From NCBI RefSeq assembly GCF_003334355.1, contig NZ_QOWP01000017.1: DNA of 64,000 bases; one strand, 5' to 3'. Positions 9,664 to 16,267 of this stretch are shown one piece after another. Made by a program: the position numbers and the translations under genes. Position 1 is the first letter of the stretch, and each line of letters starts with the position of its first letter. This DNA is from Escherichia coli (GTDB taxonomy: Bacteria > Pseudomonadota > Gammaproteobacteria > Enterobacterales > Enterobacteriaceae). The notes below the pieces were generated by a model that saw nothing but the letters and a program-made list of their open reading frames with translations, was not told the origin of the DNA and searched no databases.

Positions 9664-9836
9664 TGTCAGGAGTCCTGAATAGTGATTAGAGGAGTCACAT
9701 GTCGGCATCAGTTTCCCGACGATGCGCATCCTCCGCCATCAGTCCCGGATGGCTTATCACTGACACAACAGCACCTTAGCGAATCGCGGGGCGCGACTCA
9801 GTAGCCTTGCCGTGTATTCATCACGGCGAGGTATTC
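9664..9836. promoter_or_regulatory. Divergent late promoter region between O and P (Ogr-dependent in P2)
   Basis: Position between divergently transcribed late operons; from P2 biology, motif not pinpointed. Confidence 0.45.
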
Positions 9837-11609
9837 ATGACCATCACCACAGACACCACTCTTTTACACGACCCGCGTCGTCAGGCGGCGCTGCTGTACT
9901 GGCAGGGGTTTTCCGTGCCGCAGATTGCCGCCATGTTGCAGATGAAACGCCCGACGGTGCAGAGCTGGAAACAGCGCGACGGCTGGGACAGCGTTGCCCC
10001 CATCAGCCGTGTCGAAATGAGTCTGGAAGCGCGGCTGACCCAGCTCATCATCAAACCGCAGAAAACCGGCGGTGACTTCAAGGAAATTGACCTGCTGGGA
10101 CGCCAGATTGAACGGCTGGCGCGGGTCAACCGCTACAGTCAGACCGGCAACGAGGCAGACCTTAATCCGAACGTCGCTAACCGCAACAAAGGCGGGCGTC
10201 GCAAACCGAAAAAGAATTTTTTCAGTGACGAGGCCATCGAAAAGCTGGAGCAGATTTTCTTTGAGCAGTCTTTCGACTATCAGTTGCACTGGTATCGCGC
10301 CGGGCTTGAGCACCGCATCCGCGATATCCTGAAATCCCGCCAGATTGGCGCGACGTTTTATTTTTCCCGCGAGGCGCTGCTGCGCGCCCTGAAAACCGGT
10401 CATAACCAGATTTTTCTGTCGGCCAGTAAAACGCAGGCGTATGTGTTCCGCGAATACATCATCGCCTTTGCCCGGCTGGTTGACGTTGACCTGACCGGTG
10501 ACCCGATTGTCCTGGGCAATAACAGCGCAAAACTGATTTTTCTCGGCACCAACTCCAACACCGCGCAGAGCCATAACGGCGACCTGTACGTCGACGAGAT
10601 TTTCTGGATCCCGAATTTTCAGGTACTGCGTAAGGTGGCATCAGGTATGGCCTCACAGAGTCACCTGCGTTCGACCTATTTCTCCACCCCGTCCACGCTG
10701 GCGCACGACGCCTACCCGTTCTGGTCGGGTGAACTGTTTAACCGGGGACGCGCCAGCGCCGCCGAACGCGTGGAAATCGACGTCAGTCATAACGCCCTTG
10801 CCGGTGGACTTCTCTGTGCGGACGGCCAGTGGCGGCAGATTGTCACCATTGAGGACGCCCTGAAAGGCGGCTGCACGCTGTTCGACATTGAGCAGCTCAA
10901 ACGCGAAAACAGCGCCGACGATTTTAAAAACCTGTTCATGTGTGAATTTGTTGACGACAAGGCGTCGGTGTTCCCGTTCGAGGAGCTGCAACGCTGCATG
11001 GTCGACACGCTGGAAGAATGGGAAGACTATGCGCCGTTTGCCGCGAATCCGTTCGGCTCCCGCCCGGTATGGATTGGTTACGACCCGTCACACCGTGGCG
11101 ACAGCGCCGGATGCGTGGTACTGGCACCGCCGGTGGTAGCCGGTGGCAAATTCAGAATACTTGAGCGTCACCAGTGGAAAGGCATGGACTTTGCCACTCA
11201 GGCTGAATCCATCCGCAAACTCACCGAGAAATACAACGTCGAATACATCGGTATTGATGCCACCGGCCTCGGTGTCGGCGTGTTCCAGCTCGTGCGCTCG
11301 TTCTATCCCGCCGCACGCGACATCCGCTACACGCCGGAAATGAAAACCGCAATGGTGCTCAAGGCAAAAGACGTTATCCGCCGTGGCTGTCTGGAATATG
11401 ACGTCAGCGCCACCGACATCACCAGCTCGTTTATGGCTATCCGCAAGACCATGACCAGCAGCGGACGCAGCGCCACCTATGAGGCCAGCCGCAGCGAGGA
11501 AGCCAGCCACGCCGACCTCGCCTGGGCGACCATGCACGCCCTGTTAAATGAGCCACTCACCGCCGGTATCAGCACCCCGCTGACATCCACCATTCTGGAG
11601 TTTTACTGA
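9837..11609 (+). CDS. P: Terminase large (ATPase) subunit gpP
   Basis: Internal Met gives 590-aa MTITTDTTLLHDPRRQAALLYWQGF..., the size of P2 gpP. Confidence 0.9.
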   Translation: MTITTDTTLLHDPRRQAALLYWQGFSVPQIAAMLQMKRPTVQSWKQRDGWDSVAPISRVEMSLEARLTQLIIKPQKTGGDFKEIDLLGRQIERLARVNRYSQTGNEADLNPNVANRNKGGRRKPKKNFFSDEAIEKLEQIFFEQSFDYQLHWYRAGLEHRIRDILKSRQIGATFYFSREALLRALKTGHNQIFLSASKTQAYVFREYIIAFARLVDVDLTGDPIVLGNNSAKLIFLGTNSNTAQSHNGDLYVDEIFWIPNFQVLRKVASGMASQSHLRSTYFSTPSTLAHDAYPFWSGELFNRGRASAAERVEIDVSHNALAGGLLCADGQWRQIVTIEDALKGGCTLFDIEQLKRENSADDFKNLFMCEFVDDKASVFPFEELQRCMVDTLEEWEDYAPFAANPFGSRPVWIGYDPSHRGDSAGCVVLAPPVVAGGKFRILERHQWKGMDFATQAESIRKLTEKYNVEYIGIDATGLGVGVFQLVRSFYPAARDIRYTPEMKTAMVLKAKDVIRRGCLEYDVSATDITSSFMAIRKTMTSSGRSATYEASRSEEASHADLAWATMHALLNEPLTAGISTPLTSTILEFY

Positions 11610-12643
11610 TGAGCAAGAAAAAAGGGAAAACACCGCAACCTGCGGCAAAAAAAATGACCGCCAGCGCCCCGAAAATGGAGGCATTCACCTTTGGTGAGCC
11701 GGTGCCGGTACTCGACCGCCGTGACATTCTGGATTACGTCGAGTGCATCAGTAACGGCAGATGGTATGAGCCACCGGTCAGCTTTACCGGTCTGGCAAAA
11801 AGTCTGCGTGCTGCCGTGCATCACAGCTCACCGATTTACGTCAAACGTAATATTCTGGCCTCGACATTTATCCCGCATCCGTGGCTTTCCCAGCAGGATT
11901 TCAGCCGCTTTGTGCTGGATTTTCTGGTGTTCGGTAATGCGTTTCTGGAAAAGCGTTACAGCACCACCGGTAAGGTCATCAGACTGGAAACCTCACCGGC
12001 CAAATATACCCGTCGTGGCGTGGAGGAGGATGTTTACTGGTGGGTGCCGTCCTTCAACGAGCCGACAGCCTTCGCGCCCGGCTCCGTGTTTCATCTGCTG
12101 GAGCCTGATATTAATCAGGAGCTGTACGGCCTGCCGGAATATCTCAGCGCCCTTAACTCTGCCTGGCTGAATGAGTCGGCCACGCTGTTCCGCCGCAAGT
12201 ATTACGAAAACGGCGCACATGCCGGATACATCATGTACGTCACCGATGCCGTGCAGGACCGCAACGATATCGAAATGCTTCGCGAAAACATGGTGAAGTC
12301 GAAAGGCCGCAACAACTTTAAAAACCTGTTTCTCTATGCCCCGCAGGGGAAAGCCGACGGCATTAAAATTATCCCGCTCAGTGAAGTGGCGACGAAGGAC
12401 GATTTTTTTAATATCAAAAAAGCCAGCGCCGCTGACCTGCTGGACGCGCACCGCATCCCTTTTCAGTTGATGGGCGGCAAGCCGGAGAACGTCGGATCGC
12501 TGGGCGATATTGAGAAAGTGGCAAAGGTCTTTGTCCGCAATGAGCTTATCCCGCTACAGGACAGAATTCGGGAAATAAACGGCTGGCTCGGCCAGGAGGT
12601 CATCCGCTTTAAAAACTACTCACTGGAGACTGACAACGGCTGA
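11609..12643 (+). CDS. Q: Portal protein gpQ
   Basis: ORF track 344 aa MSKKKGKTPQPAAKKM...; recognised as P2 gpQ family. Confidence 0.9.
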   Translation: MSKKKGKTPQPAAKKMTASAPKMEAFTFGEPVPVLDRRDILDYVECISNGRWYEPPVSFTGLAKSLRAAVHHSSPIYVKRNILASTFIPHPWLSQQDFSRFVLDFLVFGNAFLEKRYSTTGKVIRLETSPAKYTRRGVEEDVYWWVPSFNEPTAFAPGSVFHLLEPDINQELYGLPEYLSALNSAWLNESATLFRRKYYENGAHAGYIMYVTDAVQDRNDIEMLRENMVKSKGRNNFKNLFLYAPQGKADGIKIIPLSEVATKDDFFNIKKASAADLLDAHRIPFQLMGGKPENVGSLGDIEKVAKVFVRNELIPLQDRIREINGWLGQEVIRFKNYSLETDNG

Positions 12644-12812: not shown

Positions 12813-12831
12813 GTGCTTTCCCCGCCTCGCC
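12813..12831. other. cos: P2 cos site (19-nt cohesive end, joined in prophage)
   Basis: gtgctttccccgcctcgcc is the reverse complement of the P2 cohesive end GGCGAGGCGGGGAAAGCAC (from memory); lies between Q and A as expected. Confidence 0.85.
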
Positions 12832-13116
12832 CGCCCGCTTCATGGGGCGGTTTTAATGCAGTTGCATAGATACTATGGATCCGCACCAGTCCTGACCGCA
12901 CGCAGCCTGAACGGACATCCCCAACGCATGCAAAAACATTCACTTGTTGCATGCATAGCTTTTTAAGTACGCCATACCGCAACTGTACATTTTTAAGCAA
13001 TTGGCAACCTTAAAAAATTTACATTGCTTTCAAGACCTTATCATCCGTAGTCTCTGTTTTTTACTTTGAGCTACATCAATAAAATCTCAAACATGTTTAA
13101 TGCAAAGCCCTTGTTA

Positions 13117-13169
13117 CACAACATAGAATGTATGTCTAGAAACAACGACATACTATATGTTGTGTTTTT
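13117..13169 (+). terminator. Interrupted 15-bp stem-loop plus T5 (terminator-like or operator)
   Basis: cacaacata/tatgttgtg outer stem and tatgtc/gacata inner stem, 10-nt loop, then ttttt. Confidence 0.3.
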
Positions 13170-13231
13170 CCGGCTCTCTGTTCGGTGATATGCCAAATCA
13201 CTTTGCGTTTAAACAGAGCATTATTTCAGGG

Positions 13232-13246
13232 CAAGACTTCGCTCAA
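13232..13246. repeat. Direct repeat copy 1 (caagacttcgctcaa)
   Basis: Exact 15-mer also at 13496..13510. Confidence 0.9.
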
Positions 13247-13309
13247 AAGTCATTCCACCTAAGAAGCGCATATACCGGTGGAAGTTGCCCTCTACTTACA
13301 GGAGGCAAT

Positions 13310-13423
13310 ATGAAGAAATGCTATTACTGCATTCTCGTTCTGGCCCTCTTTGGCTATCCAAACGGTAGTCCGAGTGGTTTGTCAGTAAACGTCAGTAATA
13401 TCAATGTCAGCATTATGCTTTAA
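13310..13423 (+). CDS. Hypothetical small hydrophobic peptide (37 aa) in the P2 old/tin hotspot
   Basis: aggagg at 13300..13305, 4-nt spacer, ATG; MKKCYYCILVLALFGYPNGSPSGLSVNVSNINVSIML; terminator directly downstream. No homolog recognised. Confidence 0.4.
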   Translation: MKKCYYCILVLALFGYPNGSPSGLSVNVSNINVSIML

Positions 13424-13440
13424 TATGCTTCAAACAAAAA

Positions 13441-13465
13441 AACCACCTGCCAGGGTGGTTTTTTT
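13441..13465. terminator. Bidirectional intrinsic terminator
   Basis: accacc/ggtggt stem with A-run upstream (13434..13442) and T7 downstream (13459..13465). Confidence 0.65.
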
Positions 13466-13495
13466 GCGCCCATCATCAATACGATGAAAGACTGA

Positions 13496-13510
13496 CAAGA
13501 CTTCGCTCAA
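13496..13510. repeat. Direct repeat copy 2 (caagacttcgctcaa)
   Basis: Exact 15-mer identical to 13232..13246. Confidence 0.9.
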
Positions 13511-13725
13511 GACGAATTATGCGTCGACATAAGGTTACCCGCAATGATTTTATTAGACTAAATGGATGGCCTTTTATGACCCGGATCAAACGGCTGTCCT
13601 TACCGACATGCTAGTCACTCAATAGCATTTAGCCTTCTAATTCAGCATGCTATTGACCTTCTGCTGCCCCATAACTGCTCCGCATAAGCCATTCAATGCC
13701 ATATCAAATCACGTTGTATTTTTAC

Positions 13726-16002
13726 TCAAATTGGTAACGAGAACCCCGGCCACTCATCAGCAACCGGATACGTGAATTTTTTCCCGTCATAATTTACGGT
13801 CGCGCCACGCGCCAGCGCCTCAAGCTCCCATCGTTGCGGCCTGATACCGTTCTGAGCGAGGTCAACGCGGATACGGGTAATTTGCAATCGTTCAGACCTG
13901 GTCAGTCTGGCAGATGGTGCAATTTCATGCGGTTTTAACGGGATTCCGTTTCTTTGCTGACGATTTGGTGTTCTCAGTCCGTGTTTTAATGCGCCCCTGA
14001 GCGCCATCACGACCTCCGGGTCACTCCATTCGATAACACCGTCATCTACCAGATTAAGCACTGCTGCGGCGTGCTCAGAAGGTGTGGGAGCCGGTAACGA
14101 AGTATCACCACCGGTGAGCTTTCCACAGTTATTGACAGGACTCCGAGGCGCGGCGATGCCGCTTTTTAAAGTCAAAGGCTCAACGACCGGAACTTTCGGC
14201 ACAATGCGCCAGTCCGTCGTTCTGGTGATATGAATATGACGCGCGCCGAGATGCGGCGCGTAAATGCCGACCACTCTCTCGACTTCTTCCTCGTACTCGT
14301 TAACGTCATCCGACGGGCTACGGGCAACCCTGACAGTCTGACAATCGCGCGGGACATTTGCCCCACCCTGCGCGCTGATATACAACGCAAAATCACCACT
14401 GTCTGCAGCAGCGCGAGCAGCCTCGACGCGTTCGTCAAACTCATTAGCAATACTGACGCCGCGAGGCAATTTGCGTAGTTCACGGTAAGCCCCCATTGTC
14501 GGCAGGCCAACCGTTTTAAATTGCGGGATGCGCCACGTTGACGCCCATGCGGTAACAGCCGCCGCTGTGTCTTTCAGCGGTCTGCCGGTATCGTTATCGA
14601 GCTGACCATCCAGTGCATAGCCGTCGATGTTTTTTGAAATGTATTTCGCGATATATCCCGCAGCACCGCCCCGGTTAAGGTATTTTGCCTGAAAACGGTT
14701 TCGCGCGGCTCCTCTTTCGTCGCCATCCTCTTTGAGCGCATAGCGACGCATGATTTCGATAATCTGGTTGCGCTGGCGTGGATTACAAAAAAGCATCATA
14801 TGCCAGTGCGGCGTTCCGTCGTGGTGTGGCTCGACGACACGCAAACCGTAGGCCTGTAAATCATTATCCTTGAATGCCGTGCGCATCAGGCTCCAGATAC
14901 GGCAGAGATAACGCTGCGCATCCTTTGGATTAAATGCCTCATCGTTCCAGCCGTGATTAAGCTGAACGGTTTTACTTTCGCCTTTTCCGACCTGACGTGT
15001 CGGGTGATACTTTGACGGCGCGGTCAGCGTGATAAACATCCCCACATCACCCTCTGCGGCGGCGTAACGCTCAATACCGGCAATGGTGTTCATCAGCTCC
15101 ATCCGGCGAATTTCAGGATTAGAAATACTGCCCATCACCTTACTGATAAGGTCGATGCGCTCGCCGGTTTCCCTGTTTTCAAGGTCACACGATTTAAGAA
15201 ATTCCAGATTTGCCTGGCGGCGCGCACGCACATCACGAATGGCATGTTTACTGGCATAAGGAGAACGGTCTTTATTGACCTCCCCGACAGCAATCAGTAA
15301 CGCCTCATGCCAGCGCATACGCTGGCCTTTAAGCTGATGAGTCCACCACTCATCGTTAAACAGGCGGGCAATGGCAGAATATGCCTGCCTCGTGGTCATC
15401 TGTCCTTTACGGTATTTTTTCCAGTAGAGCGGGGAAATATTGAAAGCACGTGCAGCGCCAGCAACATGACCATAGAGGTGAGCCTGCGCCTCATCCGTAA
15501 ACAGCGATTCTTTTTCGCCATGTGCATCAACCCAGGCATCGCAGAGTTCCTCATACATCATGAAAAGCTGCGATGAGATACGGGCAGCAAACTTTTTCAG
15601 CTCCTTGTCATTCATTCCTGGCAGGCGCGCATAGTGGTCACGCTCTGCCAGAAACAGCAACGACGCGTCGGTGTTCATTTCATGGCGCTGATTCACACGC
15701 TCAATGCGCGGCCATAAACGACGCTGAAAAGTGGATGTGAGGAAATAAAACCCGTGCACCGGGCTTTTATTGCGCCGGATGTAGTCATAGCGTGAAGTAA
15801 ACAGCGAGCGCAAAAAGTAAGGCAGGCGGTTAATCGTGGATAAAACACCTTGCACCTGACGCATCTCGTCACGTGTAAGGGGTCTTTCGCGCCCGACAGC
15901 CTCGCGTGGCGCGTTCCATGCATAAGCACCGGTAAACGCCTTACCGGTGCCTGCGGCAAATGCTGACGGAGGGACAAAACGCCCGGAGGCTTTAACGGCC
16001 AT
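13726..16002 (-). CDS. A: Replication initiation protein gpA (rolling-circle nickase)
   Basis: ORF track 772 aa (track start is TTG at 16044); ATG at 16002 gives MAVKASGRFVPPSAF..., matching P2 gpA as recalled; start uncertain. Confidence 0.9.
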   Translation of the reverse strand: MAVKASGRFVPPSAFAAGTGKAFTGAYAWNAPREAVGRERPLTRDEMRQVQGVLSTINRLPYFLRSLFTSRYDYIRRNKSPVHGFYFLTSTFQRRLWPRIERVNQRHEMNTDASLLFLAERDHYARLPGMNDKELKKFAARISSQLFMMYEELCDAWVDAHGEKESLFTDEAQAHLYGHVAGAARAFNISPLYWKKYRKGQMTTRQAYSAIARLFNDEWWTHQLKGQRMRWHEALLIAVGEVNKDRSPYASKHAIRDVRARRQANLEFLKSCDLENRETGERIDLISKVMGSISNPEIRRMELMNTIAGIERYAAAEGDVGMFITLTAPSKYHPTRQVGKGESKTVQLNHGWNDEAFNPKDAQRYLCRIWSLMRTAFKDNDLQAYGLRVVEPHHDGTPHWHMMLFCNPRQRNQIIEIMRRYALKEDGDERGAARNRFQAKYLNRGGAAGYIAKYISKNIDGYALDGQLDNDTGRPLKDTAAAVTAWASTWRIPQFKTVGLPTMGAYRELRKLPRGVSIANEFDERVEAARAAADSGDFALYISAQGGANVPRDCQTVRVARSPSDDVNEYEEEVERVVGIYAPHLGARHIHITRTTDWRIVPKVPVVEPLTLKSGIAAPRSPVNNCGKLTGGDTSLPAPTPSEHAAAVLNLVDDGVIEWSDPEVVMALRGALKHGLRTPNRQQRNGIPLKPHEIAPSARLTRSERLQITRIRVDLAQNGIRPQRWELEALARGATVNYDGKKFTYPVADEWPGFSLPI

Positions 16003-16267
16003 ATGAGCCAAAAGCCTCTGAACAACGCCTGCTGAGTTGCTCAACCTGCGCGTTTAAATCAGCAAAAGACTTTGCGCTTCCGGTCAGAATATCGTGATGC
16101 ATCAGGCCGGAAACGAGCTGGCTTAATTTCGGATAATAACCAACCACCGCCAGCCATTCCTGACCGGCGTTTTTACCGCTTTCCGCTCTCTTTTTCTCGT
16201 GGAGAATAAACTGAAAGCTGTCACTGGTAACGACATAACGTTCGCCAATTTCAATACGAATACTCAT
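15992..16267 (-). CDS. P2 early-operon small protein (orf83-like)
   Basis: ORF track 91 aa; position just upstream of A. Confidence 0.6.
   Translation of the reverse strand: MSIRIEIGERYVVTSDSFQFILHEKKRAESGKNAGQEWLAVVGYYPKLSQLVSGLMHHDILTGSAKSFADLNAQVEQLSRRCSEAFGSYGR

Follow-up and report, generated by a model that had tools for sequence, protein, structure and literature searches.

A candidate type I toxin-antitoxin-like module between cos and gene A of a P2-like prophage in Escherichia coli

In classical phage P2, the interval between gene A and cos is occupied by orf91, tin and old, and the stretch between gpA and gpQ/cos of P2 is a hotspot for anti-phage cargo (Rousset et al., PMC9122126). 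A 64,000-nucleotide stretch of Escherichia coli DNA (RefSeq assembly GCF_003334355.1, contig NZ_QOWP01000017.1; hereafter the window) contains a P2-like prophage in which the ~900-bp interval from cos to the end of gene A includes a 37-codon open reading frame (ORF). What is this ORF, and does it stand alone? We propose that it belongs to a module of ~580 bp (~13010-13590) that is probably an autonomous two-gene type I toxin-antitoxin-like unit and would represent a new family. The proposal builds on coding constraint, small RNA (sRNA) gene features, seed/target co-variation, promoter homology and a distribution over mobile elements, all of which we observed in silico.

The 37-codon gene

The ORF lies on the plus strand (13310-13423) and encodes the peptide MKKCYYCILVLALFGYPNGSPSGLSVNVSNINVSIML. 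Its ATG at 13310 is preceded by a Shine-Dalgarno (SD) sequence, AGGAGG (13300-13305), and a 4-nt spacer, CAAT, and an intrinsic terminator with a perfect 13-bp inverted repeat begins 11 nt past its stop codon. An earlier reading of this DNA made from its letters alone (the sequence-only reading) had pointed to this SD and start codon, to a terminator less than 20 nt downstream, and to a location between cos and gene A, and each of these descriptions is borne out: the P2 cos 19-mer, GTGCTTTCCCCGCCTCGCC, is found at 12813-12831, and gene A, which encodes the replication endonuclease, occupies 13726-16044 on the minus strand. As this reading described, the peptide is also predicted to have a hydrophobic helix, at approximately residues 3-16, and a polar tail rich in S, N and V; its N-terminus is basic.

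We compared 24 distinct phage variants of the locus, drawn from IMG/VR, GenBank phages and E. coli genomes. Interruption by stop codons in related prophages was a point that the sequence-only reading had singled out for checking, and the ORF is intact in all 24. Its 13 variable sites are distributed 3/0/10 over codon positions 1/2/3 (binomial p=0.0016), non-synonymous changes account for only 5 of 13, vs 74% expected (p=0.007), and the Nei-Gojobori ratio of non-synonymous to synonymous substitution rates (dN/dS) is 0.08-0.41 in all pairwise comparisons, including those with ~74%-identical plasmid homologues. Because it is intact in all variants and shows both codon-position bias and low dN/dS, the 37-codon ORF is, judged by its pattern of substitution, a real conserved gene and not a chance frame.

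The same tests dispose of a longer, 88-codon frame at 13157-13423. An in-frame TAG (13247-13249) interrupts it in all ~87%-identical relatives, which make up a second phage clade, and the part before 13310 lacks codon bias ([8,6,7]). Its ATG at 13157 falls within the predicted 5' hairpin of the transcript, as the sequence-only reading had noted when it judged that only the last 37 codons look translatable.

Relatives of the peptide gene were sought with a 57-aa in-frame extension as query. Across homologues, ORF length is constant at 37-40 codons despite strong divergence of the peptide. Among 1.84 billion representative proteins, a profile search found only 18 clusters, of which ~15 are 37-40-aa relatives. 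The Klebsiella and Salmonella forms are identical, as counted by eye, at about a third of positions, and identity between the most distant forms is roughly one third or lower. What is retained is a pattern: a basic N-terminus, a hydrophobic core beginning with C (C-[ILV]-[LFV]-[VI]-L-x-L, present in all members), a G-Q/P-x-x-W/L motif, and an uncharged S/N/V-rich tail in which V or I alternates with polar residues. We found no family for the peptide in Pfam, NCBIfam, PHROGs or PADLOC (with eight members searched against Pfam and NCBIfam), apart from a weak match to a PHROG of unknown function (E-value 0.34, residues 1-16 only).

Annotation treats the gene unevenly. The NCBI Prokaryotic Genome Annotation Pipeline (PGAP) annotates nothing at the locus in 191/191 E. 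coli genomes that carry the sequence, while one GenBank phage record already calls the 37-codon coding sequence a "hypothetical protein". In a large protein collection the peptide is found on at least 1000 contigs, always under that same label (e.g. ECW_m2278 of E. coli W).

The predicted antisense RNA and its target

A convergent sRNA gene is predicted to adjoin the peptide gene and to share one terminator with it. The two genes are linked by an exact 15-nt direct repeat, CAAGACTTCGCTCAA, at 13232-13246 and 13496-13510. By our own estimate, ~0.0003 such direct repeats are expected by chance in the interval, and across the 64-kb window only two matches to the repeat are found at two or fewer mismatches, vs 0.18 expected. 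The 5' copy provides the predicted sRNA target, GGCAAGACUUCGCUC (13230-13244, plus strand), in the 5' untranslated region (UTR) of the peptide mRNA, 66-80 nt upstream of the ATG. The second copy lies beyond the terminator and, on the minus strand, 7 nt downstream of the hexamer CATAAT. Because the genes converge, a direct repeat in the DNA would make the two RNAs complementary.

The predicted antisense sRNA, the putative antitoxin, is ~77 nt long (13432-13508, minus strand) and comprises a 5' seed, GAGCGAAGUCUUGUC (13508-13494), an internal hairpin (13492-13468) and the terminator. Its predicted promoter (13516-13544, minus strand) consists of a -35 element, TTGCGG (13544-13539), a 17-nt spacer and the -10 element CATAAT (13521-13516). 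The terminator (13435-13466) is predicted to act on both strands: its perfect inverted repeat is bordered by A/T runs on both sides, and its loop would read UGCCAG on the mRNA and CUGGCA on the sRNA. The sRNA has a predicted folding energy of -29.5 kcal/mol (z=-3.3).

Conservation of this gene follows its predicted parts. Stem and loop of the terminator are invariant among variants whose divergence elsewhere reaches ~40-50%; the exceptions are the Enterobacter/Citrobacter variant, which has a single loop change, and the diverged relative L077. The order of seed, hairpin and terminator recurs in every variant, and the hairpin keeps its place even where its sequence is fully replaced. Of the promoter elements, the -10 hexamer shows no change in any of 13 aligned variants, and L076 carries TATCAT in that register. 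The -35 core TTGCG is found in the phage, Klebsiella, Enterobacter, Kluyvera, L056, L071 and Salmonella-plasmid variants; L051 and L060 have a degenerate version of it. The spacer is 17-18 nt long, with about half of its positions differing between variants, and the distance from the -10 element to the GAGC that follows is a constant 7 nt.

Seed and target change together. For the window, the predicted seed/target duplex has an energy of -30.2 kcal/mol, vs -18.2±2.6 kcal/mol for shuffled seeds. Across 10 distinct copy-pairs, standard pairs occupy 99.3% of 150 cells (15 pairs x 10 copy-pairs), and the lone unpaired cell is a terminal pair. Changes on both sides, and thus compensatory, occur at 6 of the 15 pairs; among 500 shuffles none attains the covariation score and one attains six pairs, and sliding the partner by ±1-3 columns lowers pairing to 30-46%. 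The loci fall into three seed classes, GGCAAGACTTCGCTC, GGTAAGGCTTTGCTC and GGTAAGGCATTACTC, and both copies of a locus share its class. Where the two copies differ internally on one side only, the result in the mRNA:sRNA duplex is a G·U and never an A·C (5/5 cases; our own count, p ~0.03), a polarity that speaks for paired RNAs more than for a duplicated DNA operator.

The mRNA that would carry the target is predicted to extend from 13136 to 13466 on the plus strand (~330 nt, with a 5'UTR of ~174 nt); in 15 variants its length is 315-342 nt and that of the UTR 155-180 nt. It has a predicted folding energy of -101.2 kcal/mol (z=-4.75 vs shuffles). In the minimum free energy structure a hairpin closes the 5' end (13138-13169), and the Klebsiella, Salmonella-plasmid and metagenome variants place a hairpin of unrelated sequence at the same position. 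Downstream of it lies a conserved two-tier stem-loop (13176-13218), in which CUCUGUU...AAACAGAG encloses GGUGAU...AUCAC. RNAalifold finds compensatory changes at four pairs of this helix (UA>CG, UA>GC, UA>AU and AU>CG), the diverged L051 and L060 variants retain both of its tiers, and its apical UGCCA (13191-13195) is present in nearly every family member. Comparative folding also supports a helix between UCCRCC and GGYGGA.

The start region appears to be sequestered as well. AGGAGG (13300-13305) is predicted to pair with GCCCUCU (13287-13293) in a local hairpin (13287-13305), and in most of the 15 variants the SD lies in a predicted stem with a C-rich stretch 7-13 nt upstream as its partner. 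In the full-length mRNAs, the mean unpaired probability of positions -13..-6 is 0.14-0.54. A structured mRNA with a sequestered SD is a hallmark of type I toxin mRNAs, and the general logic of their control has been reviewed (PMC11228461).

Several further features of the two RNAs deserve mention in their own right. The apical UGCCA of the UTR stem-loop is also found in the mRNA terminator loop (UGCCAG, 13448-13453) and is complementary to the sRNA terminator loop (CUGGCA), which suggests a loop-loop contact between UTR and sRNA terminator of the kind known from par. The Enterobacter/Citrobacter variant, the sole one to change both loops, has an A·C at this position, and the pair is not restored. 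A pseudoknot between the UTR loop UGCCA and the UGGCA at the target was considered and lacks support, as L071 alters target and sRNA and leaves the loop as it is. On the minus strand, a 37-aa arginine-rich ORF (13476-13589) with a TTG start and an upstream AAGGA overlaps the sRNA promoter and seed. Klebsiella plasmids and 24/24 phage variants have it intact. Codon-position bias is absent, however (p=0.11), and frameshifts or stops disrupt the ORF in the Enterobacter and Salmonella-plasmid variants, so that it is unlikely to be a gene. On the plus strand, a promoter-like CTGACA-17-AATTAT (13492-13520) overlaps the sRNA start, and transcription from it would enter the end of gene A in antisense direction; this site is probably incidental, since its -10 and the sRNA -10 are palindromic mirrors of each other.

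In Rfam, no family matches either RNA in the window or in four homologous loci, and the ryfA family (RF00126) is absent even at E<=1. Sub-threshold hits to ColE1 RNAI and the Phe leader at 13433-13520, on both strands, are caused by the terminator alone, the 34-36 nt of which are also ~94% identical to sequences in hundreds of small ColE1-type plasmids.

Promoter, carriers and prophage setting

Upstream of the peptide mRNA, the plus-strand promoter region (13010-13135) is homologous to the treC-nrdD intergenic region of E. coli, which holds the promoter of nrdDG. Positions 13041-13111 are ~84-87% identical to a site found upstream of nrdD in 5426/5426 complete E. coli genomes (L004 2001-2071), and the promoter region is conserved in the plasmid and metagenome homologues of the module. 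Given this match, prophage and chromosome have ~100 bp of homologous sequence in common, over which recombination could occur.

The homology includes predicted regulatory sites. In nrdDG, a 54-mer carries FNR sites centred at -64.5, which is reported to be necessary and sufficient for expression, and at -33.5, which is auxiliary (PMC10425943). The window has a box identical to nrdDG site 2, TTGAGCTACATCAA (13066-13079, plus strand; predicted centre -64.5), and a site 1-like box, TTAATGCAAAGCCC (13097-13110, plus strand; predicted centre -33.5), with the same 31-bp spacing as in nrdDG. A -10 hexamer, TAGAAT (13124-13129, plus strand), aligns with TAAAAT of nrdDG, and the -33.5/-64.5 geometry of the FNR sites places the predicted mRNA start at ~13136/13137. 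Site 1 matches the consensus at 6/10 positions in the window and at 9/10 in plasmid variants; plasmid homologues have TTGATGCAAATCAC at this site, and the second phage clade has TTGATGCAAAACCA. Across the family, TTG-N8-TCAA, a site 1 resembling TTGATGCAAATCAC, and TA[AG]AAT are kept.

Two 16-mers in the window, ACACAACATAGAATGT (13116-13131) and ATACTATATGTTGTGT (13150-13165), resemble NrdR boxes. By inspection they match at 13/16 and 14/16 positions the consensus that Rodionov and Gelfand reportedly gave in 2005, acaCwAtATaTwgtgt. The linker between them is 18 bp in the window and 16 bp in the second clade, the norm being 15-16 bp, and the window boxes are shifted relative to those of nrdDG. 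Among the relatives, L073, L076, L077 and L056 carry TCACTATATATAG.. at the canonical position of nrdDG box 1, and the first three also have a box-2-like 16-mer with a linker of 15-16 bp; the boxes of the Klebsiella plasmid variants are poor. An NrdR probe sequence served for comparison with nrdDG-type boxes (PMC12176259). Based on the promoter homology, we predict that the peptide gene is activated by FNR, and hence anaerobically, and that it is repressed by NrdR in part of the family. For the window itself NrdR control cannot be asserted, because the boxes are shifted and their linker is 18 bp.

The module is not confined to prophages. By blastn, a unit of ~430-600 bp with ~74-77% identity is found on 388 large plasmids of Klebsiella, Enterobacter, Salmonella and other hosts, with IncFIB, IncFII and IncHI1B replicons and with unrelated gene neighbourhoods among plasmids. 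Scans with the invariant 32-mer of the terminator added Citrobacter, Kluyvera and 27 metagenome loci. Among the loci of the relatives from the profile search, L073 (1180-1800) lies on a 1.39-Mb metagenome contig between genes for a glutathione peroxidase and an acetyltransferase and is apparently a chromosomal copy; it has the third seed/target class, with GGTAAGGCATTACTC in both copies, and near-canonical NrdR boxes of the nrdDG type. L077 (1500-2710) adjoins a phage integrase gene. Here a ~900-bp insert encoding a 217-aa protein splits the toxin gene from the sRNA gene, and the terminator is duplicated, with a partly altered copy at the toxin gene and a full copy at the sRNA gene. The sRNA gene of L077 retains an exact seed copy, ~1.2 kb from its target, and the -10 hexamer.

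Nearly all carriers are thus phages, plasmids or integrase-adjacent loci, and because plasmid, metagenome and integrase-adjacent copies stand in unrelated contexts we regard the unit as an autonomous module and not a feature of P2. The sequence-only reading had seen it as a prophage element; it had also overlooked the partner sRNA, the 15-nt direct repeat, and the nrdDG-type FNR/NrdR promoter. In scans of one genome per species, the peptide pattern gave no match, and the terminator pattern was found only in Citrobacter, Kluyvera and one unrelated metagenome-assembled genome (MAG). The last of these, a contig labelled as a Segetibacter MAG (L043 1270-1301), has an identical 32-nt terminator downstream of an unrelated gene and no other part of the module, and may reflect contamination or a chance or borrowed terminator.

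Within the prophage, two plus-strand genes precede cos, one for the large terminase (9807-11609) and one for the portal (11609-12643), and the module is the sole hotspot content in the window. Members of the second phage clade have additional cargo genes between cos and the module (L001 974-2125; L002 326-1502; L005 1431-2432), for hypothetical proteins of ~160-200 aa or 333 aa. The module always adjoins gene A, also where this extra cargo is present. The ~100 bp to the right of cos (12850-12955), with small inverted repeats at 12926-12954, are 98% identical in P2-EC67 and Yersinia phage VB-YPM-4, P2-like phages that are free of the module; this segment is a conserved cos flank and not cargo.

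Weighing the explanations and comparison with known systems

The module has generic features of a type I toxin-antitoxin system: a hydrophobic peptide of <60 aa with a predicted membrane segment, and an adjacent predicted antisense RNA gene. The guess of the sequence-only reading that the peptide is a toxin or exclusion factor thereby gains indirect support, from the sRNA-paired type I architecture and from the location on mobile elements and in the hotspot.

Several observations weigh against this interpretation. At the level of the peptide, we found no profile or sequence similarity to Hok, Ldr, Ibs, TisB, ShoB, DinQ/DqlB, ZorO, SymE or RalR; the hydrophobic stretch of ~13-14 residues is short for a membrane helix; the uncharged polar C-terminal tail is unlike that of most type I toxins; and an AlphaFold2 model from an alignment of eight sequences, with a helix at residues 3-15 and a predicted local distance difference test (pLDDT) score of 56, is of low confidence and uninformative. 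TimP, a peptide of similar size, is not necessarily lethal at native levels (PMC7667032). At the level of the RNAs, identity of the direct repeats would by itself equally fit a duplicated protein-binding site, the features that favour RNA pairing over such a site are the G·U polarity and the sRNA gene features only, and the double changes fall mostly on a few deep branches. At the promoter, FNR site 1 of the window is degenerate and its NrdR-like boxes are 18 bp apart, and a post-segregational killer would not usually have a toxin promoter that depends on FNR.

The main rival keeps the same two-RNA module and makes the peptide non-toxic: a small protein of the inner membrane, co-regulated with nrdDG and tuned by the sRNA, with a role in cell physiology when oxygen is absent or nucleotides are limiting. 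We regard this as a real but clearly less probable alternative. A promoter of nrdDG type with FNR and NrdR boxes would suit such a role, as would the apparently chromosomal homologue on the 1.39-Mb contig, which lies between housekeeping-type genes; the polar, uncharged, beta-strand-like tail is unlike that of classical pore-forming toxins, and TimP at native levels permits growth (PMC7667032). Yet nearly all copies are found on phages, on plasmids or beside integrases, and the phage copies sit in a defence and exclusion hotspot. Moreover, the multiple layers of predicted repression, with a structured stable mRNA, a sequestered SD and a dedicated antisense RNA, suggest that a harmful product is being avoided.

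A second rival dispenses with the sRNA. If the 15-nt repeats were DNA sites for a regulatory protein that loops over the intervening 264 bp, control would be transcriptional only, and identical copies that change jointly would be expected of a co-evolving operator pair as much as of paired RNAs. The module encodes no DNA-binding protein, yet it is found in P2 phages, on IncF and IncHI plasmids and on a chromosome. The 3' copy lies exactly 7 nt past a conserved -10 element and is followed by a hairpin and terminator, differences between copies are always G·U-compatible in one polarity, and in L077 the copies are ~1.2 kb apart and the 3' copy still has its promoter and terminator. An operator pair therefore seems to us improbable, and like decay it is poorly compatible with the sequence data. 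Least probable is that the locus is decaying debris, a captured piece of nrdD regulatory DNA with a fortuitous ORF: the lack of PGAP annotation in 191 E. coli genomes and the recombination-prone interval (PMC9122126) would fit this, and purifying selection on the ORF, specific elements kept amid ~25-50% divergence, compensatory changes in RNA helices and in the intermolecular duplex, and the presence of the module in several genera and on different replicons speak against it.

Returning to a toxin-antitoxin-like module, we infer RNA expression, repression, toxicity and a biological role as follows. On the plus strand, an nrdDG-like promoter with FNR sites at ~-64.5/-33.5, and possibly NrdR boxes, would drive a structured mRNA of ~330 nt, the last third of which encodes the 37-aa peptide; this is predicted to span the membrane once, as a helix, with its N-terminus on the cytoplasmic side. 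On the minus strand, a constitutive sigma70-type promoter would make the ~77-nt sRNA, converging on the shared terminator, and the first 15 nt of the sRNA would pair with the 5'UTR 66-80 nt before the start codon. With the SD in a local hairpin, translation would require upstream UTR elements, by analogy with tisB/IstR-1, zorO/OrzO and timP/TimR, and sRNA binding would block this UTR-dependent step, trigger RNase III cleavage, or both, such that peptide synthesis would be off as long as the cell contains the sRNA. If the element were lost, or an infecting phage shut off transcription, the sRNA would disappear and the stable mRNA would stay in place; synthesis of the peptide would follow, with damage to the inner membrane. 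The outcome would be stabilization of the plasmid or prophage, or abortion of the infection. The system would be armed mainly under anaerobiosis, and also at low dATP where NrdR boxes are intact.

A bolder form of this proposal, which we offer tentatively and consider rather unlikely as a whole, makes the module a conditional suicide or addiction device within the anaerobic ribonucleotide-reductase regulon, under an nrdDG-type promoter controlled by FNR and NrdR. Its toxin would be transcribed only in anaerobic, low-dATP cells and translated when the labile antisense RNA vanishes. In the P2 hotspot it would amount to RNA-only abortive infection that senses phage-perturbed nucleotide pools and host transcription in the gut, and on Klebsiella plasmids to an anaerobiosis-specific post-segregational killer, with the three seed classes insulating co-resident copies from one another.

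If confirmed, the module would be a new type I toxin-antitoxin family in Enterobacterales, missed as a system by annotation. It sits in the P2 anti-phage hotspot, where PADLOC finds nothing, and on hundreds of clinically relevant Klebsiella IncF/IncHI plasmids, and a ~580-bp RNA-controlled micro-module of this kind would be missed by protein-centred hotspot surveys and by PGAP; "empty" P2 hotspots may therefore not be empty. It would be unusual in three respects: a layout of which Gram-positive par loci have so far been the typical example, three seed/target pairs with natural orthogonality, and a toxin promoter borrowed from the anaerobic ribonucleotide reductase, which would link oxygen and deoxynucleotide (dNTP) status to the arming of the toxin. 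Plasmid stability and phage exclusion might accordingly differ between the aerobic laboratory and the anaerobic gut. A non-exhaustive look at the literature brought up neither a paper with the peptide or seed sequences nor one connecting NrdR to a type I toxin.

In layout, the closest known system is par. The par locus of the Enterococcus plasmid pAD1 (Fst/RNA I-RNA II), which has Gram-positive relatives, combines convergent promoters, a bidirectional terminator, direct repeats that are read in opposite directions and so provide a second complementary region, and a 5' structure that sequesters the SD (PMC7472228). The module likewise has predicted convergent promoters, a shared bidirectional terminator, a direct repeat that makes the two RNAs complementary, and an SD predicted to be sequestered in the mRNA, and like par it is carried by plasmids and phages. 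It differs in having one repeat instead of two, in placing that repeat 66-80 nt upstream of the start codon and not, like the par repeats, over the translation initiation region, in its Enterobacterales hosts, and in a toxin-gene transcription that is apparently gated by FNR/NrdR. The peptide lacks the PXXXG(C)-type motif, the charged tail and the profile match of Fst/Ldr; with no Pfam or NCBIfam match and an uncharged tail, the module is par-like in its predicted layout but not a member of Fst/Ldr.

In its predicted mode of control, the module resembles enterobacterial systems. It shares with the E. coli type I systems tisB/IstR-1, zorO/OrzO, shoB/OhsC and dinQ/AgrB, in which complementarity in the 5'UTR is limited and of trans type, a short duplex (15-30 nt) far upstream of the ribosome-binding site, a long structured 5'UTR and, by prediction, a small hydrophobic inner-membrane peptide. 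These systems have no sequence similarity to the module, and their sRNA genes are divergent and upstream, whereas that of the module is convergent and shares the terminator; the inducing signal of tisB and dinQ is SOS, and that predicted for the module is FNR/NrdR. In timP/TimR (ryfA, RF00126), a 38-aa peptide is encoded at +145..+261 of a ~300-nt mRNA that was once taken as non-coding, and TimP is uncleaved and located in the inner membrane (PMC7667032). The module matches timP/TimR in size class, in a signal-sequence-like N-terminal hydrophobic segment, in predicted sRNA pairing with the 5'UTR and in predicted UTR-dependent translation. TimR is encoded divergently and upstream, whereas the module's sRNA gene is convergent and downstream, and timPR is a core enterobacterial chromosomal locus, whereas the module is found on mobile elements.

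Two further comparisons concern the surroundings of the gene. With the nrdDG promoter, the module shares 80-87% identity over ~70-100 bp, an identical FNR site 2, the 31-bp spacing and an aligned -10 element; in the module, this promoter lies before a 37-codon ORF, the homology ends at the -10 element, and site 1 and the NrdR boxes are altered in the window. Finally, the module occupies the same cos-proximal slot as old/tin and other gpA-gpQ hotspot cargo, and unlike that cargo it would be a ~580-bp RNA-controlled micro-module with no protein-level similarity in PADLOC.

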